In this document: positions 1 to 6,745 of the stretch, piece after piece
Numbering within the stretch: position 1 is the stretch's first letter
How the letters are laid out: each line of letters starts with the position of its first letter
NCBI GenBank assembly: GCA_035387745.1
Contig: DAOOON010000034.1
Span: forward strand, 1 to 6,745
Direction: 5' to 3'
Length of the DNA: 6,745 bases
DNA from: an archaeon
Lineage (GTDB): Archaea; Iainarchaeota; Iainarchaeia; Iainarchaeales; CSSED10-239
Made by a program: the position numbers and the translations under genes
Notes under the pieces: generated by a model
Database searches by the model: none
What the model saw: only the letters and a program-made list of their open reading frames with translations
What the model was told of the DNA's origin: nothing

Positions 1-98
1 GAATCAAGGCCTTGAGGATAAGTAAGTAACTCTATAGCTAGATATCTTTTTTTATGCCTTAAATTTGGCCTGATTACTGCTAGTTTTTTCTTTTTCAT
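1..98 (-). CDS. rnp2: RNase P protein component 2 (Pop5 family). Only the N-terminal 32 codons are in the window; the gene continues past the left edge.
   Basis: Not in the ORF track. Reverse-complementing 1..98 gives ATG at 98..96 and MKKKKLAVIRPNLRHKKRYLAIELLTYPQGLD. The P-x-LR-x-K-K-RY-[IL]-A segment matches my recollection of the conserved archaeal Pop5 N-terminus (LPPTLR-KKRYIAF). The ATG overlaps the TGA stop of the upstream Rpp30-like gene (ATGA, 95..98). Pop5 and Rpp30 genes are commonly adjacent in archaea. Confidence 0.6.
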   Translation of the reverse strand, partial: MKKKKLAVIRPNLRHKKRYLAIELLTYPQGLD

Positions 99-685
99 AA
101 ATCTTCTAAAATTCTTTTTATCATCGCTCTTTCTATCCCAAGATTTCTTAAAAAATTCTTAAGAACTATTGGATCGACAAGGTCTTCAGGAACTTTTGCC
201 ATAGATACAAACCGAAACTCAACATTTCTTTTTTTTAATAGCTCTAAAATAAATAATGTTTGCTTTATTGCTTTGTTTTGATTATATCTTATTTCTCTTA
301 TATCAAAAAAAATAATTTTATTGTTTTGTTTTGCTATTCTTGCTAATCCCTCGTCAAAAGCGGTTTCTGAGGAAATGGGGTTTAAGAGATGAATTTCTGA
401 TTTGCTCGATATAATATTGGTGTTAGCTGAGAGACTGCTGCCTTGTCCAAGAATTAATGCGTTTTTTGTAATCTTGTTTTTTAGATTGCTATAAAGATTT
501 AAGTCTTTAAACAGAAATGCAGGCTTTGTGTTTTTTGCTTTTGGGAAAACAAAGTCAAGGTCTTCTCTTTTGTTTATCTCTTTAACTACGTAAATCTTTT
601 CGATATTTAGTTTCTTTAAAATTTCTTCTGCAGAGGGATAATTGAAAAACTCACTTGAAACTACATCAAAGTATTTTTCTTTCAT
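95..685 (-). CDS. rnp3: RNase P protein component 3 (Rpp30 family)
   Basis: The C-terminal two thirds (HLLNPISSETAFDEGLARIAKQNNKIIFFDIREIRY...LLKKRNVEFRFVSMAKVPEDLVDPIVLKNFLRNLGIE) follow the archaeal Rpp30 pattern as I recall it from Pyrococcus Rpp30 (I-SP...D-LA...KKNV...F-R...Y...L-KY-V...SSA...V-P-DL...LG-E). It sits next to a Pop5-like gene. Start choice: the track start at 730 is a TTG and would overlap argS by 37 nt. The first ATG (685..683) lies 8 nt after the argS stop and 7 nt after a GTGAT Shine-Dalgarno-like motif, so 685 is preferred. That gives 196 aa. Confidence 0.6.
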   Translation of the reverse strand: MKEKYFDVVSSEFFNYPSAEEILKKLNIEKIYVVKEINKREDLDFVFPKAKNTKPAFLFKDLNLYSNLKNKITKNALILGQGSSLSANTNIISSKSEIHLLNPISSETAFDEGLARIAKQNNKIIFFDIREIRYNQNKAIKQTLFILELLKKRNVEFRFVSMAKVPEDLVDPIVLKNFLRNLGIERAMIKRILEDL

Positions 686-693
686 TTTCTTTA

Positions 694-2394
694 TCACATT
701 TTCTCTGGAATCTCTATGCCTAATAACCAAGTTGCATTTTTTAGGGTTTGAAGATAAGTACTTATTAATGCTAGTCTTTGTTCTTGAAGCGCCTTGTTAT
801 CTGATATTACTGGGCAATTTCCATAAAACTTATTAAAAGCACGAGCTAAATCTAAACAGTGACTTGCAATAATATTTGGTTTTCTTTCTTTAGAAGCATA
901 TTCTACTTTGCTTGGAAACTGCATAATCAAATTTAATAATCTCTTTTCATCGTCTTCTAGTTTTTCTGGCTTTGGTGTGTTGTTTATGCCTTTGAAATTT
1001 GCTTTTCTTAAAATGCTTTTTGCTCGTACACCACTATACTGAATATATACTGCCGAGTCGCCTTGAAGATCAAGAGCGGAATTAATATCAAACACAAAGG
1101 TCTTGTTAAAACCAATCTTTAGCATCTCAAATTTAATTGTTCCAAACACTATCTTGTCTATTATTTCTTTGTCCTGCTCTAGGTTGTTTTCAGTTAATAC
1201 TTGTTTTACTTTATCTCGCAATTGATCTCTTAAGTCCTCATAAAGTACCATGCCTCCTGCACGAGAAGCCATCTTTCCGCTTATTAGATTTACCATGCCA
1301 AGAGAAATGTGCTCGTGTGTAGTTTCTGGATAAATCACAGAAAATAACCCAAATAATTGCCTAAAATAAAAATCCTGTTCTGAACCCACAATATAAATGA
1401 AATGCTTGCATTTTGGGAACTTCTGTTTTTTGATTTGCACAAGCGCTATATCTTTTGCACCATAAAGTGGTGCGCCGTTCTTTTTTATTAGCACTAAGAC
1501 ATCCAGTTTTTTGTCTTTTAGGTCTGCTATGATCGCACCGTCACTTTCCTTAATTATATCTTTGTGTTCTTTAAAAAATGCATCTTTAATTTCTAAAAAC
1601 TTCTTTTCGGTCTCGCTTTCAAAGATCTTGTCTACAAGCTCCACTCCAAGTTCTGTTTTAACCTGCATATAAGCATCATAACAAATGTCTCTTAGTCTTG
1701 CTATTTCTTTTTGTAATTCTTTATCTGTTAAAATCTGTTTTTGAATATTATCAATTTCTTTTGTGGAGTTTTCATTATCTTTTGTTTTTTCTCCAGCAGC
1801 AATATAGATTTCTCCAAACCATTTAGAGACGTTCTCTTTAGGAATCTTTTGCTTGTCTTTTGGTAGTTGTAAATAATACCAATACCATTTAGCGACATGC
1901 GTTCCTACATCTCCACCATAATATACTGGCTTAGAATCGTAACCAGAGAAAGATAAAAGACGAGAGATAGCATCTCCTCCAACTATCATTCTTAAGTGGC
2001 CAACATGCAAAGTCTTGAAAGTATTTGCATTAAAGGTGTCAATTACATATTGTTCTTTTGCGCCAGTTTTTGACTTTCCATAATTTTCTTTATTATCAAA
2101 AACTTGAGAAATTGTTTCTGTGTAAAGTATTTCTGGTTTTATCTTAATATTAACATATCCACTAACAGCAAAATACTCAAAAATATCCTGTTTTTCTTTT
2201 TTTAGTTTCTCAACTAAGTCTTTAGAAATGTCATTTGGAGATTTTCTTAGTTCCTTTGATAATGAGAAACACGGGAAAGATAAATCTCCAAGATTAAAAT
2301 CTGGTGGTTCTTCTATGATTTTAAGAGTTTCAGAAATATCTTTTTTTGTAATTTTAGAAATCTCTTCTGCAAATCTTTCTTTAAAGTTAAACAT
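694..2394 (-). CDS. argS: Arginine--tRNA ligase (arginyl-tRNA synthetase), class I
   Basis: 566 aa. N-terminal ArgRS additional domain (EEPPDFNLGDLSFPCFSLSKELRKSPNDISKDL...SGYVNIKI). HIGH motif as HVGH (1996..2007). Degenerate KMSKS region (SGKMASRAGG). C-terminal anticodon-binding helical domain ending in the typical ...PEKM. ATG start at 2394, preceded by AAGGTA 8 nt upstream. Confidence 0.95.
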   Translation of the reverse strand: MFNFKERFAEEISKITKKDISETLKIIEEPPDFNLGDLSFPCFSLSKELRKSPNDISKDLVEKLKKEKQDIFEYFAVSGYVNIKIKPEILYTETISQVFDNKENYGKSKTGAKEQYVIDTFNANTFKTLHVGHLRMIVGGDAISRLLSFSGYDSKPVYYGGDVGTHVAKWYWYYLQLPKDKQKIPKENVSKWFGEIYIAAGEKTKDNENSTKEIDNIQKQILTDKELQKEIARLRDICYDAYMQVKTELGVELVDKIFESETEKKFLEIKDAFFKEHKDIIKESDGAIIADLKDKKLDVLVLIKKNGAPLYGAKDIALVQIKKQKFPKCKHFIYIVGSEQDFYFRQLFGLFSVIYPETTHEHISLGMVNLISGKMASRAGGMVLYEDLRDQLRDKVKQVLTENNLEQDKEIIDKIVFGTIKFEMLKIGFNKTFVFDINSALDLQGDSAVYIQYSGVRAKSILRKANFKGINNTPKPEKLEDDEKRLLNLIMQFPSKVEYASKERKPNIIASHCLDLARAFNKFYGNCPVISDNKALQEQRLALISTYLQTLKNATWLLGIEIPEKM

Positions 2395-2412
2395 AATTTA
2401 TTACCTTTAAAG

Positions 2413-2485
2413 CGAGCCCGGAGGGATTCGAACCCTCGACCCACAGCTTAGAAGGCTGTTGCCCTATCCACTAGGCCACGGGCCC
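2413..2485 (-). tRNA. tRNA-Arg, anticodon UCU (reads AGA/AGG). No intron and no encoded CCA.
   Basis: The reverse complement folds by hand into a 73-nt cloverleaf: GGGCCCG TG GCCT AGTGGATA GGGC A ACAGC CT-TCT-AA GCTGT GGGTC GAGGG TTCGAAT CCCTC CGGGCTC G. It has a 7-bp acceptor stem (one G-U), a 4-bp D stem, a 5-bp anticodon stem, a 5-bp T stem with TTCGAAT loop, and discriminator G. It is GC-rich against the AT-rich background. Confidence 0.9.
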
Positions 2486-2510
2486 ACAATATATATAATT
2501 TAGAAAAGAA

Positions 2511-2523
2511 AATAAATAAAAAT
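2511..2523 (-). promoter_or_regulatory. Candidate archaeal TATA-like element for the tRNA-Arg (and possibly argS) transcript. The same T-rich stretch may also terminate the upstream gene.
   Basis: The minus strand reads ...ctaTTTTTATTTATTttc... about -26 to -38 from the mature tRNA 5' end. This is the spacing expected for an archaeal TATA box with a very short leader. The context is AT-rich, so specificity is weak. Confidence 0.25.
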
Positions 2524-2540
2524 AGAGCAGAAAGAAGCAC

Positions 2541-3617
2541 TTATTGTGCTTGTGCTGCTAAAGATTCTTGAATCTTAGAAAAACTCTCTGGGTTCTCTTC
2601 TATCCATTTTTGTAAAATTGCATATTCTGAGTTTATTCTATTTATGTCTTCTGAATACTTTTCTAAAATACTGTTTTGAAGAGTTTGTAAATTTTCTAAA
2701 AACTCGGAAGAATTATTAAACAATTCTAAATCGGCTTCAAAATATTTTCCTTGCTCTCCTGCACAATTAGCATATACTGCGGCTGATGGCTCTGAACTAA
2801 TCATATCTTTTGGTAAATATTTAATTTTGCCCGTATCAATATATTCAGACTTTAATTGCATTAATGATTCTTGTGCTAGTTTCTTACAATAACCACAATA
2901 ATAATCAGAATAAACATAAACAACAACTTTTGCATTTTCGGAACCAAAAAAGAAATCTCCTTCTTGATAAAACTGGTCTTCCACAACATTCCCGTCCATT
3001 GCTGCATCAATTTTTTCTTTTAATTCTGTATAAGTTAGATAACCGCCAGCATATTCGTTATTAATTATAATTGCAGGAGTTCCAGTTAAACCAATCATTT
3101 GTGCAAATTGTGTGTCTGTAAAAATCTTTTGTAAAATTTTTGCGTCGTTTTCTCCTATTTCTGCAGTAAGGTTAAGGTTTTCTGCAACACATGAATCTAT
3201 TTCAGTTTTATTTAAATTTAATTTGGAGGTTATTTGATCAAATATTGGCTTTTGTTTTACTTGTATATTTTCTAAAAGTTCAGTTTGTATCTTCTGACCA
3301 AATTCTGTTGTTTCAAGCATAAATGTTGAATATTTTTCTATAAATTCTTCTTCCGTTAAACTTACATTTGTATCGACAGGAGTAATTGTTATATTGTGAT
3401 CTACATCCTGATCTGTAATAATTGCCTTTTTGTTTTTTGTTAAAACAATTGTTGCAATTACTGCTCCGATTATTAAAATTATTATAATTAAAATTCCTAT
3501 AATCAAAAAAGTGTTTGATTTCTTTTTTTCTTTGTGAATTATTTCTTTCTTTTCGGTTTTAGGTTTTTTTTCAACTTTTACTTTCTTTTCTGTTTTCTTT
3601 ATTTTCTGTTTTTTCAA
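2541..3617 (-). CDS. Membrane-anchored DsbA-like (thioredoxin-fold) thiol:disulfide oxidoreductase, atypical domain order
   Basis: 358 aa. Lys-rich N-terminal tail (MKKQKIKKTEKKVKVEKKPKTEKK...). One hydrophobic helix (TFLIIGILIIIILIIGAVIATIVL, about 3441..3512), so N-in/C-out topology is predicted. CxxC active site in DsbA-family context (AKVVVYVYSDYYCGYCKKL, Cys codons 2895..2897 and 2886..2888), followed by YANCAGEQGKYFEADLELF. A separate upstream G-L-T-G-T-P-A-I-I-I-N segment matches the cis-Pro loop. The start is TTG at 3617..3615, backed by a strong GGGTGAT SD. There is no in-frame ATG nearby. Confidence 0.75.
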   Translation of the reverse strand: MKKQKIKKTEKKVKVEKKPKTEKKEIIHKEKKKSNTFLIIGILIIIILIIGAVIATIVLTKNKKAIITDQDVDHNITITPVDTNVSLTEEEFIEKYSTFMLETTEFGQKIQTELLENIQVKQKPIFDQITSKLNLNKTEIDSCVAENLNLTAEIGENDAKILQKIFTDTQFAQMIGLTGTPAIIINNEYAGGYLTYTELKEKIDAAMDGNVVEDQFYQEGDFFFGSENAKVVVYVYSDYYCGYCKKLAQESLMQLKSEYIDTGKIKYLPKDMISSEPSAAVYANCAGEQGKYFEADLELFNNSSEFLENLQTLQNSILEKYSEDINRINSEYAILQKWIEENPESFSKIQESLAAQAQ

Positions 3618-3622
3618 AATAT

Positions 3623-3629
3623 CACCCTT
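3623..3629 (-). promoter_or_regulatory. Shine-Dalgarno sequence (GGGTGAT) for the DsbA-like gene
   Basis: The minus strand reads aaaaaGGGTGATattTTG. GGTGAT is complementary to the archaeal 16S rRNA 3' end (GAUCACC), and sits 3 nt before the TTG start. Confidence 0.5.
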
Positions 3630-3659
3630 TTTTAATATGCTTAACTATAAAAATAGTAG

Positions 3660-3676
3660 TATAATATATTATATAG
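3660..3676. promoter_or_regulatory. AT-only 14-bp perfect palindrome (TATAATATATTATA, 3660..3673) with overlapping TTATATAG. Candidate TATA element(s) of the divergent promoter region.
   Basis: It lies in the 89-nt divergent spacer 3618..3706. Its centre is about 40 nt from the taw1 ATG and about 49 nt from the TTG of the DsbA-like gene. That is compatible with transcription starts about 26 nt away in both directions and short leaders. Confidence 0.3.
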
Positions 3677-3706
3677 AATAATAATAGTTTAAAAATAAGT
3701 GTTTTT

Positions 3707-4705
3707 ATGACAAAAGAATTAATATCAACAGAAAAGATAGAAAACTTAAAACATAAGCATTATGGTATGTTCGGCAAACACTCTGCTGTTGAGATTTGCG
3801 AATGGAATAAAAAAGCTCTGCGTGGAGAAGGCGTTTGCTATAAAGAAAAATTCTATAATGTCGAGTGCCACAGGTGTGCGCAAATAACGCCAGCAGTCCT
3901 TTGGTGCCATCAAAATTGTATTTTCTGTTGGCGACCCGCAGAGTATATGACTATTGATAAATTTACTACTAAAGACTATGACAACCCAAAAGAAATAATT
4001 GACGGATTATTTAAAGAAAGAAAAAAACTGCTTTCTGGTTTTGGTGGTTTTCCAAAAGTTTCTAAAGCAAAACTAAAAGAAGCAGAAGTGCCTAGCCACG
4101 TGGCCATTTCTCTTTCTGGGGAACCCACACTTTACAAGGACCTTTGGAAATTGATTAAGGAATTAAAATCTAGAAAAGAAATTAAAACCATTTTTGTAGT
4201 AACTAACGGAATGGAACCGGAAAATCTTTTGGCTTTACAAAAGCACAAAAACCTGCCAACACAACTTTATCTTTCTTTTGTTGCGCCAAACAAAGAATTA
4301 CATCTTAAAATTAATCGCCCAAAGATAAAAGACTCTTGGGAGAGATTACAAAAGACAATATGGATAATGCCAAAACTAAAATGCAGAAAGGTTATTAGAT
4401 TTACATTAATTAAAGGAATGAACGATGATAAAAAATATATTAAAGACTTTGTAAAAATCTTTGAAAAATCAAAAGCTGATTTTGTAGAAATAAAATCTTA
4501 TATGTATCTTGGATATTCTAGAAAGACTATGGCTATAGACAACATGCCAAAATATGAAGAATGCTTGAAATACGCAAAAGCTTTTGAAAAAGAATCAAAG
4601 GACTATAAGATCTCTGATACTTGTAAACCATCAAAGATAATTCTTTTAAAACATAAGAAATCAAAAGTTGATAATTTTATAATTAAGAAAAAAGGTAGAA
4701 AATAA
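3707..4705 (+). CDS. taw1: tRNA 4-demethylwyosine synthase (radical SAM; archaeal Taw1, homologue of TYW1)
   Basis: 332 aa. Radical-SAM motif CHQNCIFCWRP (C67/C71/C74). Three upstream cysteines, C31/C44/C57, are spaced 13 and 13 residues apart, as in the auxiliary-cluster cysteines of archaeal Taw1 (motif block 3797..3928). Family-typical context: KHSAVEICEWNKKAL...CYKEKFYNVECHRCAQITPA and ISLSGEPTLY. Confidence 0.9.
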   Translation: MTKELISTEKIENLKHKHYGMFGKHSAVEICEWNKKALRGEGVCYKEKFYNVECHRCAQITPAVLWCHQNCIFCWRPAEYMTIDKFTTKDYDNPKEIIDGLFKERKKLLSGFGGFPKVSKAKLKEAEVPSHVAISLSGEPTLYKDLWKLIKELKSRKEIKTIFVVTNGMEPENLLALQKHKNLPTQLYLSFVAPNKELHLKINRPKIKDSWERLQKTIWIMPKLKCRKVIRFTLIKGMNDDKKYIKDFVKIFEKSKADFVEIKSYMYLGYSRKTMAIDNMPKYEECLKYAKAFEKESKDYKISDTCKPSKIILLKHKKSKVDNFIIKKKGRK

Positions 4706-5584
4706 ATGGTTGAACTAAATTCAGAATTAAAAGCAGTAGTTGATGCTTTAAATAATGAAAAGACAATTTGTCTTTTGGCACCAAGCTTTCCTGTAGATTT
4801 TAAGTTCCCGGATATTATTCTAGATCTTAGAAGAATGGGTTTTACTAAAGTTGTGGAATTGACTTATGCTGCTAAACTTATTAATTATAAATATATAAAC
4901 ATAATAAATGAAAACCCCGAAAAACAATTTATTTGCGGTAATTGCCCAACAATTGTTAAATTAATAGAAAATCAATATCCTGATCTAAAAGACAATATTC
5001 TAGACGTTACTTCACCAATGGTGGTTATGGCGCGTTTTGTTAAAAGAGAGTTTGGGAATGATTATAAAACCATTTTTGTGGGTCCTTGCTTTGCTAAAAA
5101 AACAGAAGCCAAAGAAAATTCTGATTGCGTAGACTATGCTCTGACTTTTAAAGAGCTAATAGAAATCTATGATTATTGCGAAGAAAAAAATATTTTAAAA
5201 AATATTGAAGAAAATAAAGCAAACAGGGAATTTGATAAATTTTATAATGATGTGACAAAAATTTATCCACTTGGCGGCGGCGTTGCAAGTTCTATGATAA
5301 CAAAAGACATACTTAATCTTGAACAAGTAATTGTATGCGATGGCCCAAAATGTATAGAAAAGGCAATGTTTGATTTTACTAATAATACAAAATATAGATT
5401 TGTAGATATACTTTTCTGCGAAGGCGGTTGCCTTGGAGGACCAGGCATTGTGTGTAAGGATGATCTTGAAACAAAAAAACAAAGACTATTTGATTACAAA
5501 GAAAAATCAAGATACTACGAGCCTAATGAAAACTACGGAAAGTTCGTGCATGCTTTTGGACTGGATATAAAACGAAAGAAATGA
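4706..5584 (+). CDS. [FeFe]-hydrogenase H-domain-like / Nar1-like iron-sulfur protein, miniature (292 aa). Function uncertain.
   Basis: The three H-cluster signature regions appear in order. L1-like FICGNCPTIVKLIENQYPDL (compare TSCCPGW...YPEL), Cys codons 4934..4936 and 4943..4945. L2-like VGPCFAKKTEA (compare MPCxxKKxEA), Cys 5087..5089. L3-like DILFCEGGCLGGPG (compare ExMxCxGGCxxGGG), Cys 5417..5419 and 5429..5431. Also LAPSFPV, TSP and PLGGGVASS blocks. The ATG directly abuts the taw1 stop, and AAGGTA lies 9 nt upstream. Confidence 0.75.
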   Translation: MVELNSELKAVVDALNNEKTICLLAPSFPVDFKFPDIILDLRRMGFTKVVELTYAAKLINYKYINIINENPEKQFICGNCPTIVKLIENQYPDLKDNILDVTSPMVVMARFVKREFGNDYKTIFVGPCFAKKTEAKENSDCVDYALTFKELIEIYDYCEEKNILKNIEENKANREFDKFYNDVTKIYPLGGGVASSMITKDILNLEQVIVCDGPKCIEKAMFDFTNNTKYRFVDILFCEGGCLGGPGIVCKDDLETKKQRLFDYKEKSRYYEPNENYGKFVHAFGLDIKRKK

Positions 5585-5660
5585 ATTAGTATTTATCCCA
5601 ACGACTATCTGATTTGTTATTCCAAGATTTTAAAAAATTATCTAATAATTTATAATACTC

Positions 5661-5696
5661 TTTTTCTTCTTTATTTTTAAATTTAAATTTCTTTTT
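5661..5696 (+). terminator. Cluster of oligo-T tracts. Candidate archaeal terminator for the taw1/hydrogenase-like transcript.
   Basis: T5 runs at 5661..5665, 5674..5678 and 5692..5696, downstream of the stop at 5582..5584. Archaeal RNA polymerase terminates at oligo-T. The AT-rich background makes this weak evidence. Confidence 0.3.
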
Positions 5697-5722
5697 ATTA
5701 ATCATAATCTTCACGGATTATT

Positions 5723-5747
5723 GAATCACAGATTTAATCTGTGATTC
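5723..5747. repeat. Perfect 11-bp inverted repeat (hairpin, 3-nt loop) centred on the radA stop codon
   Basis: GAATCACAGAT (5723..5733), TTA (5734..5736, the complement of the radA TAA stop), ATCTGTGATTC (5737..5747). The right arm encodes the last RadA residues (G)ITD. Confidence 0.6.
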
Positions 5748-6726
5748 CATTTTCTGTAACTTGGTATACTGCTTCGCCGTCTGGAAGGCTTGGGGAATCA
5801 ACAAGTTTTGCAATTCTTTTTGAACCTGAACTTTTTCTTAAATAGATTCGCGTCTTTGATGCGTGCTTAACTATGTTACCGCCAATAGCATCTGTGGGGT
5901 CACCAAACAAAACATCTGGTCTTGACATTACTTGGTTTGTTACAAAGACTACAACATTATAAAGCTCTGCAATCTTTTGTAAAGTTCTCATGTGCCCATT
6001 AAGTTTCTGTTGTCTGTCTGATAACTGACCTCTTCCTACAAATTCTGATCTAAACTGGCTTGTTAAAGAATCGACAATTACAAGCTTAATGTTTTTCTCT
6101 TTTAATAGCTCTTGGGCCTTGTCTGCTAATAACATTTGGTGATTGCTATTAAAAGCTCTAGCAACAAATATGTTTTTCATAACCTCTTCAGGGTCTAGCC
6201 CTCTAAACTTTGCAATCTGTGCCACTCTTTCTGGTCTAAATGAATTTTCTGTGTCAATATAAAGAACTCCGCCGTTTAAACCCCCTTTCTCATTAGGCAA
6301 TTGTGCTAAAACACAAAGTTGGAAACACCATTGGGACTTACCAGAAGCAAACATTCCATAGACTTCTGTAATTGACTGGCTTTCAATTCCTCCGCCAAGT
6401 AATTCGTCTAGTTCTTTTGAACCTGTTGTTAATCTTGCTATTAGCTTTCTTCTATCAAGTATCTTCTCTGCAGTCTCAAAGCCCATCTCTAGTGAATCTC
6501 TTGCTGCTTTAATTGCTTTAATTGCGGTTCCTTCGCCAATACCTGCAACTGCAACTAATTCACTTGGGGAAGCAACAGCTATTGCTTCTAGAGAATCGTA
6601 GCCTGCAGCTAAAAGCTTTTCAGCCGAAGCTGGGCCAATGCCTGGAAGGTCTGTTATTGACATCTCTTTACCTGGTTCTCTCTCTGTTTCTTCTAAATTT
6701 TCTTGATTTTCAAATTCTAAACTCAT
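5734..6726 (-). CDS. radA: DNA repair and recombination protein RadA (archaeal RecA/Rad51 homologue)
   Basis: 330 aa. N-terminal helix-hairpin-helix domain ([25 protein letters not shown]). Walker [10 protein letters not shown] (6334..6357). Walker B-like KLVIVDSL. Typical motifs [31 protein letters not shown] and GGNIVKHAS. An alternative start at M22 (6663..6661, [10 protein letters not shown]) is possible. Confidence 0.95.
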
Positions 6727-6745
6727 GGTTTCTTCCTTCTTTTCT

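Follow-up and report, generated by a model that had tools for sequence, protein, structure and literature searches.

Does a protein that has kept the cluster ligands of an [FeFe] hydrogenase, and has changed at positions of the catalytic site, still make hydrogen? The question is raised by an open reading frame (ORF) at 4706–5584 on the plus strand of contig DAOOON010000034.1, within the 6,745-nucleotide stretch of DNA analysed here (positions 1 to 6,745; the window). Of the two readings offered in an original prediction, one was a highly reduced and atypical hydrogenase, the other an Fe-S or sensor protein without catalytic function. Our analysis places its product among the group E ultraminimal [FeFe] hydrogenases, as a fresh member of a family described in 2024 (Greening et al., 2024; Cell 187:3357; PMC11216029). 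The 292-residue protein (the query in what follows) re-finds a published, biochemically validated family and is not a novel kind of protein; its firm placement in a family of known function disposes of novelty and leaves the hydrogenase reading standing.

Results

A bare H-domain with the [FeFe] hydrogenase fold

The hydA-like coding sequence runs from an ATG start to a TGA stop and specifies a single-domain protein of 33.7 kDa and pI 5.6; the opposite strand carries stops throughout. The sole Pfam match of the protein was PF02906 (Fe_hyd_lg_C, iron-only hydrogenase large subunit, C-terminal domain), with residues 20–246 aligned to profile positions 3–245 of 245 at an E-value of 5.4e-41 and 141 bits (cutoff 22). 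No Fer4, PAS, FeS (PF04060) or small-subunit (PF02256) domain was found in the Pfam scan, in agreement with the initial description of a bare H-domain core of 292 residues devoid of ferredoxin-like domains. Matches to NCBIfam were all sub-threshold, the best being the group B model TIGR04105 at 132 bits (cutoff 450); the group A models scored 42–71 bits. Cysteines lie at positions 22, 77, 80, 128, 141, 158, 211, 216, 238, 242 and 250. As had been noticed, C22 is the only one before residue 77, and it is kept in just 53 of the 74 sequences of our family alignment.

An AlphaFold2 model of the query, made on the family alignment, had a mean pLDDT of 94.9 and a pTM of 0.92. In a Foldseek comparison with the PDB, all 50 matches listed were [FeFe] hydrogenases, with query-normalised TM-scores of 0.70–0.75 at 17–22% identity.

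Residue equivalences with CpI

The register of the query on CpI, the Clostridium pasteurianum enzyme, was taken from two alignments that agree with each other, a phmmer alignment with CpI chains and an alignment of the 74-sequence family profile with CpI and Thermotoga HydA (TmHydA). In the L1 motif (C77-G78-N79-C80-P81; 4934–4948, +), residues F75-I76-C77-G78-N79-C80-P81 fall on M295-F296-T297-S298-C299-C300-P301 of CpI. C80 therefore occupies the position of C300, a ligand of [4Fe-4S]H, N79 stands at the position of the proton-relay residue C299, and C77 is an extra, invariant Cys at the position of T297. In the L2 motif (G126-P-C128-F-A-K131-K132-T-E134-A135; 5081–5110, +), G126-P127-C128 corresponds to M353-P354-C355, so that Gly replaces M353, and K131 and E134 correspond to K358 and E361. 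In the L3 motif (L236-F-C238-E-G-G-C242; 5411–5431, +), L236 is found at M497, C238 at C499 and C242 at C503, which forms the bridge to the [2Fe] subsite. The assignments made by eye in the original prediction, namely the four cluster cysteines, the retained Lys and Glu of L2, the replacement of the relay Cys by Asn and of the L2 and L3 Met residues by Gly and Leu, and the additional upstream Cys that gives CGNC, were all recovered by these alignments.

A further motif, A25-P26-S27 (4778–4786, +), aligned in the family profile with the 'APA' of TmHydA and is invariant in 74 of 74 family sequences; in our own numbering of CpI its counterpart is A230-P231-S232. This is the AP[S/A] motif of group A enzymes, which hydrogen-bonds a cyanide ligand of the [2Fe] site. 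The remainder of the canonical proton path is also gone from the query: in the phmmer alignment, with CpI positions that we numbered from C299 and C300, E279 and E282 fall in a gap, R286 is replaced by I66 and S319 by L99. The query consequently departs from group A at the relay Cys of the TSCCP signature, where it has Asn, and at M353, M497 and the E279-S319-E282-R286 path, with G126 and L236 at the two Met positions. Forty columns of the 74-sequence alignment are invariant, all cluster ligands among them; C77, N79, C80, P81, C128, K131, K132, E134, C238 and C242 belong to this set.

Family membership and the characterised relative Fm

At least 245 homologues of the query were found in a large protein collection, nearly all of them 280–300 residues long with PF02906 alone. 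Group E was defined as 'ultraminimal' [FeFe] hydrogenases that are monomeric and consist of the H-domain only, with a mean length of 286 residues and hosts among the Iainarchaeota, Micrarchaeota and Nanoarchaeota (Greening et al., 2024; PMC11216029). The query, with 292 residues and the H-domain only, conforms to this size, and it has the four H-cluster cysteines expected of the group in C80, C128, C238 and C242. The unusually small DPANN homologues mentioned in the original prediction correspond to this group.

The group E representative from Ca. Forterrea multitransposorum (Fm) has been purified as a 33-kDa protein with 4.2 ± 0.4 Fe per protein and carries one [4Fe-4S] cluster. With synthetic [2Fe]adt it formed the H-cluster, as seen by Fourier-transform infrared spectroscopy, and after this maturation it produced H2, with bidirectional cyclic voltammetry that was biased to H+ reduction (Greening et al., 2024; PMC11216029). 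Our scan of species-representative genomes returned one matching locus in CP045477.1, the complete Ca. Forterrea multitransposorum genome (839,632 bp), whose translation matches our homologue P0034 exactly. Because this was the only locus in CP045477.1, and one [FeFe] hydrogenase per genome has been reported outside Asgard (PMC11216029), we take P0034 to be Fm.

Query and P0034 are 55% identical over 99% of the query (339 bits), as against at most 50 bits and 20–22% identity between the query and group A structures. The active-site motifs of Fm are ICGNCPS, VGPCFSKKQEAKE and LFCTGGCVGGPG; the CGNCP, VGPCFSKKQEA and LFCTGGC contained in the Fm protein conform to the same pattern, CGNCP / VGPC..KK.EA / LFC.GGC, as those of the query. 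By analogy, the Asn, Gly and Leu deviations of the query are compatible with catalysis, because Fm has all three and yet turns over H2 in vitro.

Hosts, recoding and larger relatives

The scan of species-representative genomes yielded 80 loci that fall into three host sets. Set i comprises 18 loci of Iainarchaeota-type archaea, Fm included, with 46–88% identity to the query. Set ii is made up of ∼36 species of Candidate Phyla Radiation (CPR) bacteria, SR1/Absconditabacterales, Gracilibacteria and many with the label 'Peribacteria', with 44–59% identity. Set iii, with 35–44% identity, comes from Nanoarchaeia, Woesearchaeota and Pacearchaeota together with other CPR lineages. We refer to sets i and ii as subclade 1 and to set iii as subclade 2. 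In a neighbour-joining tree with 200 bootstraps, which is distance-based and not a tree of all groups A–G, subclade 1 was split from subclade 2 with 98% support, and the query fell in the former, the clade of Fm. Within subclade 1 archaea and bacteria interleave, and support for monophyly was low, at 34% for the Iainarchaeota and 10% for the CPR. With a single exception, the members of subclade 1 have I-C-x-N-C-P as their L1 loop; in set iii the loop reads I-[SA]-[ST]-[VPA]-C-P, and the L2 motif starts with S-P-C.

The set ii loci make sense only if UGA is read as a sense codon: their coverage by long ORFs rose from 0–0.5 to 0.75–0.94 once UGA was no longer treated as a stop. The complete SR1 genome CP006913 belongs to this recoded set. 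Each set ii hydrogenase gene has two to 12 in-frame TGA (Gly) codons, with frame and motifs kept, and in 11 of 34 loci a TGA specifies even the invariant Gly126. These codons, that for Gly126 included, indicate that the genes are resident in recoded bacteria and are therefore not binning contaminants. The set ii loci are numbered within L017–L060, with the addition of L063; examples are L058 (CP006913.1:688378-705154) and L063:8001-8870.

Greening et al. (2024; PMC11216029) present group E as monophyletic and archaeal. We conclude that the clade of the query and Fm is not restricted to archaea, since ∼36 UGA-recoded CPR species carry members. Our literature search found no paper on CPR homologues (Absconditabacteria, Vampirococcus) and nothing specific that follows up group E.

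In an exhaustive search of 50%-identity representatives, 2,175 proteins matched the query at E ≤ 1e-3 and 42 at E ≤ 1e-30. After ∼25 minimal clusters, the next matches, in an order that is a hit ranking and not a rooted phylogeny, were proteins of 350–1,000 residues with the group C sensory architecture: N-terminal Fer4, H-domain and PF04060 FeS, followed by PAS, HisKA, HATPase, MCP or GAF. In most of these the C299 position is taken by Ala, Pro, Ser or Thr and L2 reads 'IGPC', as anticipated for sensory relatives in the original prediction. Because most of them show both Gly for M353 and a missing relay Cys, these two features are normal outside group A; judged on the sequences compared, the feature particular to the subclade of the query is the Cys-x-Asn pair. 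Group E has been reported as the sister of group C (Greening et al., 2024; PMC11216029).

Two entries in the protein collection deserve separate mention. P0004, an H-domain-only protein of 292 residues that is 88% identical to the query, bears the JGI name 'two-component system, NtrC family, sensor kinase', presumably a misannotation transferred from group C sensory hydrogenases. P0128 (4,122 residues predicted) has seven tandem units of H-domain plus small subunit, then flavodoxin and FAD-binding domains; it resembles either a hydrogenase array of eukaryotic type or an artefact of assembly or gene calling.

Gene neighbourhoods

The window belongs to a longer JGI metagenome contig, Ga0116242_10020247 (9,126 bp). 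In the window (∼30% G+C) the hydrogenase gene directly follows that for TYW1/Taw1, 4-demethylwyosine synthase (3707–4705, +), a radical S-adenosylmethionine (SAM) enzyme that matched TIGR03972 at 354 bits (cutoff 318) as well as the Pfam families Radical_SAM and Wyosine_form. The TAA stop of TYW1 (4703–4705) abuts the hydrogenase ATG (4706); co-transcription and translational coupling of the two genes are therefore probable. A possible Shine–Dalgarno-like AGGT, recognised from the sequence, is located at 4693–4696 (+), inside the 3′ end of TYW1 and 9 nt before the hydrogenase ATG. Scanning for sigma-70 promoters and terminators yielded no signal beyond that expected from shuffled sequence; such models are not applicable to archaea.

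The other window genes, as identified with Pfam and NCBIfam, encode arginyl-tRNA synthetase (ArgRS), a DsbA-like thioredoxin (Trx), RadA and the product of an ORF of unknown function. The same scans of the window genes gave no HydE, HydF or HydG, as originally stated. The RadA and TYW1 equivalogs are archaeal signs, and the order ArgRS-Trx-TYW1-hydrogenase-RadA recurs in metagenome-assembled genomes labelled Iainarchaeum or Diapherotrites; they point to a DPANN archaeon, probably of the phylum Iainarchaeota, as the host.

In the Fm locus, and beside the 88%-identical homologue on a 429-kb contig, ArgRS and Trx are likewise transcribed away from TYW1 and the hydrogenase. By tblastn, TYW1 was found just upstream of the hydrogenase in 18 of 18 Iainarchaeota-type loci, flanked by ArgRS and Trx wherever the contig reaches that far. 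The gap between TYW1 and the hydrogenase was −17 to +45 nt in 17 of these 18 (L007–L016, L023, L025, L027, L037, L041, L048 and L057); in L040 TYW1 was missed by the ORF caller. The gene downstream is variable, with SUF/NifU, MFS, small ORFs or RadA in this place. In the Forterrea lineage (L003, L004 and L016) NifU-SufD-SufB-SufC, which are that genome's genes for Fe-S cluster assembly, are convergent with the hydrogenase and 3 nt past it (10865–14383 in L003). A fermentative context is seen around the 88%-identical homologue, with a gene resembling that for ADP-forming acetyl-CoA synthetase at a distance of ∼10 kb and one for a PEP-utilising enzyme at ∼4 kb.

The recoded CPR bacteria have other neighbours. 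Their usual order is L9-UvrB-RimO-like-hydrogenase-HemW-like-NusA, and deeper-branching members have UvrB-x-hydrogenase-RimO-like...HemW-like; overall, a RimO-like or HemW-like gene is immediately beside the hydrogenase in 26 of 36 loci. The RimO-like protein (UPF0004 plus Radical_SAM) scored 327 bits against the RimO model TIGR01125 (cutoff 357) and passed the cutoff of the MiaB/RimO subfamily, and the HemW-like protein (Radical_SAM plus HemN_C) scored 172 bits against TIGR00539 (cutoff 205). As the RimO-like gene can occupy either side of the hydrogenase, the linkage survives gene rearrangement. Thus, in two unrelated host groups, the hydrogenase usually adjoins two-cluster radical SAM enzymes of different families. 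These neighbours are not discussed in Greening et al. (2024; PMC11216029).

In subclade 2 the neighbours are RNase Z and glycyl-tRNA synthetase, HPF and SecA, or a multi-pass membrane protein of ∼180 residues. This protein has no Pfam or NCBIfam match (L062:7442-7987, L068, L082 and L084:7404-7940; in L061 it is on the opposite strand). In CPR bacteria as well as DPANN archaea, its gene directly precedes the start of the subclade 2 hydrogenase, at a spacing of −47 to +9 nt, and in four loci it overlaps that start. The protein may be related to 'hyd6TM', which Greening et al. (PMC11216029) mention for group A.

Three further observations concern the flanks of the window. RadA (5734–6745, −) runs off the end of the window; its ORF in the complete source contig starts at 6753 (339 residues) and not at the ATG at 6726 to which the window alone would point. 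The ORF at 95–730 (−), of 196–211 residues and with no Pfam family, is found directly downstream of ArgRS in 13 Iainarchaeota-type loci (cluster c10), and in a relative it adjoins a gene for an RNase P Rpp14-like protein. The DsbA/Thioredoxin_4-like protein (2541–3617, −), whose gene is divergent from the TYW1–hydrogenase pair, has a Lys-rich N-terminus and one hydrophobic segment; its relatives vary in length from 339 to 541 residues and are conserved in position.

Discussion

We consider it likely that the query serves an Iainarchaeota-type archaeon as a minimal hydrogenase that depends on ferredoxin and evolves H2, and that its cofactor is made without HydEFG. In such an enzyme the condensed H-domain would hold the [4Fe-4S] part of the H-cluster through C80, C128, C238 and C242, with C242 bridging to the [2Fe] subsite, and the cyanide ligands would be held by A25-P26-S27 and by K131, the latter paired with E134. 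Because there are no relay clusters, [4Fe-4S]H is expected to be exposed at the surface and to take electrons straight from reduced ferredoxin, as in the algal HydA1. Protons would arrive by a non-canonical route, because C299, E279, E282, S319 and R286 have all been replaced or deleted, and the invariant N79 and C77 at the active-site loop are the evident candidates for it. The H2 released would dispose of fermentative reductant. The fold, the ligand conservation, the residue equivalences and the membership of the family are direct observations of this analysis; cofactor binding and catalysis would follow from the literature on Fm, at 55% identity and with identical motifs, and we infer the ferredoxin partner, the role of N79 and C77, and HydEFG-independent maturation of the query in vivo.

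Several observations weigh against this scheme. The published activity of Fm needed artificial maturation with a synthetic cofactor, and according to Greening et al. (2024; PMC11216029) neither the closed Fm genome nor most of the archaeal genomes with a hydrogenase encode HydE, HydF and HydG, which leaves room for doubt about assembly of the [2Fe] subsite in vivo. We likewise found none of them in the 6.7-kb window or in the 9.1-kb source contig, the small ORFs on the rest of which included no ferredoxin, and no ferredoxin, pyruvate:ferredoxin oxidoreductase or maturase was present among the annotated conserved immediate neighbours in the 80 loci. In addition, the whole canonical proton pathway is gone from the query, and the multidomain proteins nearest to it are built like putative sensors.

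The company kept by the gene suggests a different role. In vivo, the protein might be the partner of the adjacent two-cluster radical SAM enzymes, TYW1 here and the RimO-/HemW-like proteins in CPR bacteria, either as a hydrogenase that oxidises H2 and passes on the low-potential electron with which SAM is cleaved, or as a redox or cluster-carrier protein that has its [4Fe-4S] cluster only and is similar to Nar1/NARFL. In both versions it would take the place that flavodoxin or ferredoxin reductase systems have in other organisms; in a variant, the flanking radical SAM genes would be the missing maturases. We judge a partnership of this kind unlikely, and slightly less likely again its extension to the entire I-C-x-N-C-P subclade, which, exchanged between Iainarchaeota and UGA-recoded CPR bacteria, would be dedicated to the two-cluster radical SAM modifiers of tRNA and ribosomal proteins and would not be chiefly a fermentative H2 valve, be it as H2-driven reductant or as [4Fe-4S]-only Nar1-like protein, in either case making up for reductase systems that these reduced genomes lack, or with flanking maturases. 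The abutting TYW1 stop and hydrogenase ATG are what a partnership would lead one to expect, as are the tight gap in 17 of 18 Iainarchaeota-type loci next to a changing downstream gene, the RimO-/HemW-like neighbour in 26 of 36 CPR loci, on rearranged sides too, and the difference in neighbour families between the two host domains. Eukaryotic TYW1 has its own flavodoxin domain and archaeal Taw1 is without one. The lack of HydEFG in the closed Fm genome, and SufCBD and NifU directly after the hydrogenase in the Fm locus, are also in keeping with it. Nevertheless, the association was spotted post hoc and is confined to subclade 1, subclade 2 having other neighbours. TYW1, which is above its equivalog cutoff, RimO and HemW score as ordinary housekeeping genes and are situated in housekeeping blocks, so conserved synteny alone could explain the pattern. 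Among the distant representatives no fusion of a hydrogenase with a radical SAM domain was found, the extra domains being Fer4, PF04060, PAS, HisKA, HATPase, MCP and GAF. Fm is biased to H2 evolution, not uptake, and in a [4Fe-4S]-only protein the cyanide holders, the invariant APS and K131, would be needless, although the KK.EA motif is present in Nar1 too. We rejected the possibility that the neighbouring TYW1 is HydE or HydG in disguise: its score exceeds the equivalog cutoff for TYW1, and neither maturase is represented among the models that it matches.

It is very improbable that the query is a stand-alone H2 sensor, a stripped-down group C (HydS-like) protein that signals to a separate partner. 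In its favour, the nearest larger relatives combine Fer4, H-domain and PF04060 with PAS, HisKA, HATPase, MCP or GAF, groups E and C are reported to be sisters, and the query resembles most of these relatives in its missing relay Cys and in the Gly that stands for M353; the NtrC-family sensor kinase label of the 88%-identical homologue points the same way. However, output domains such as PAS or kinase are missing from the query, as is a C-terminal FeS motif; none of the 80 loci has a signalling gene as a conserved neighbour; and Fm evolves substantial H2 with a bias opposite to that of TmHydS. The hosts of minimal hydrogenases, moreover, have tiny genomes with little regulation. For want of an output domain or partner we rejected the sensor reading. 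We give next to no credence to a decaying relic of a hydrogenase that no longer functions in the lineage, as might be supposed from the lack of known maturases in such genomes and the loss of the canonical proton pathway. Some 80 species-level genomes, from two domains of life, carry an intact ORF, with 40 invariant columns including all ligands; the bacterial copies gained two to 12 in-frame UGA (Gly) codons and yet kept frame and motifs; and the structure model is of very high confidence. This strong pattern of conservation effectively refutes a relic or pseudogene. Of the two readings in the original prediction, then, that of a reduced, atypical hydrogenase is upheld, and that of a non-catalytic Fe-S or sensor protein is disfavoured by the biochemistry of Fm, although it keeps some standing in vivo because the closed Fm genome is without HydEFG.

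As a hydrogenase of group E, the query belongs to the smallest known H2 catalysts, which are of interest as engineering scaffolds and pose the puzzle of how an H-cluster is assembled without HydEFG. Its sequence is 45% diverged from that of the characterised Fm with every active-site motif intact, and so helps to define the residues that are truly required. The invariant Cys-x-Asn pair in place of the relay Cys suggests a specific, testable alternative proton route. The long-resident, UGA-Gly-rich copies in Absconditabacterales-/Gracilibacteria-type CPR bacteria imply that genes have passed from one group of ultra-small episymbionts to another, and the recurrent adjacency to radical SAM genes provides a concrete lead on the physiological electron acceptor or on the missing maturation route.

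Comparison with known systems

The closest known system is Fm itself. Like the query, it is a single H-domain of ∼290 residues without accessory clusters, in which I-C-G-N-C-P, VGPC..KK.EA and LFC.GGC.GGPG are identical; it also has TYW1 upstream, the ArgRS-Trx-TYW1-hydrogenase...RadA synteny and a DPANN host (Iainarchaeota/Diapherotrites). The two proteins differ in 45% of residues and lie on separate sub-branches of subclade 1, and the gene downstream is SufCBD/NifU in Fm and RadA in the query locus.

The closest multidomain relatives are the group C enzymes of the HydS type, such as Thermotoga maritima HydS, with H-domains that are ∼30–37% identical to the query. Most of them share with it the absence of a Cys at the C299 position and the Gly at the M353 position. 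In contrast to the query, they have N-terminal Fer4, C-terminal PF04060 FeS and PAS, kinase or MCP output domains, and their L1 loop is S-[ST]-[APST]-C-P where that of the query subclade is C-x-N-C-P. The catalytic bias of TmHydS is towards H2 oxidation, that of Fm towards H+ reduction (Greening et al., 2024; PMC11216029).

The CpI-type structures of group A share the H-domain fold of the query (TM-score 0.70–0.75, ∼20–22% identity); chains of the Chlamydomonas reinhardtii enzyme CrHydA1 matched the query by sequence only. CpI and HydA1 have the four cluster cysteines, the Lys358 and Glu361 equivalents and the APS motif in common with it, and C. reinhardtii HydA1, like the query, lacks accessory clusters. 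To our knowledge, the hosts of group A enzymes have HydEFG. At 292 residues the query is much shorter than HydA1, which has 457 (PMC11216029). It also has no C-terminal segment resembling the small subunit, PF02256 giving no match.

A final comparison is with Nar1/NARFL, hydrogenase-like proteins of cytosolic Fe-S assembly in eukaryotes, to which the query is alike in its PF02906 domain, in the apparent lack of [2Fe] maturases in the host and in deviations at catalytic positions. Nar1 is eukaryotic and larger, and has an extra N-terminal site for a four-Cys cluster. The query has only the non-conserved C22 before C77 and an archaeal context; the Nar1 side of this comparison is general knowledge. 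Fm, the close homologue of the query, accepts the [2Fe] cofactor and makes H2.

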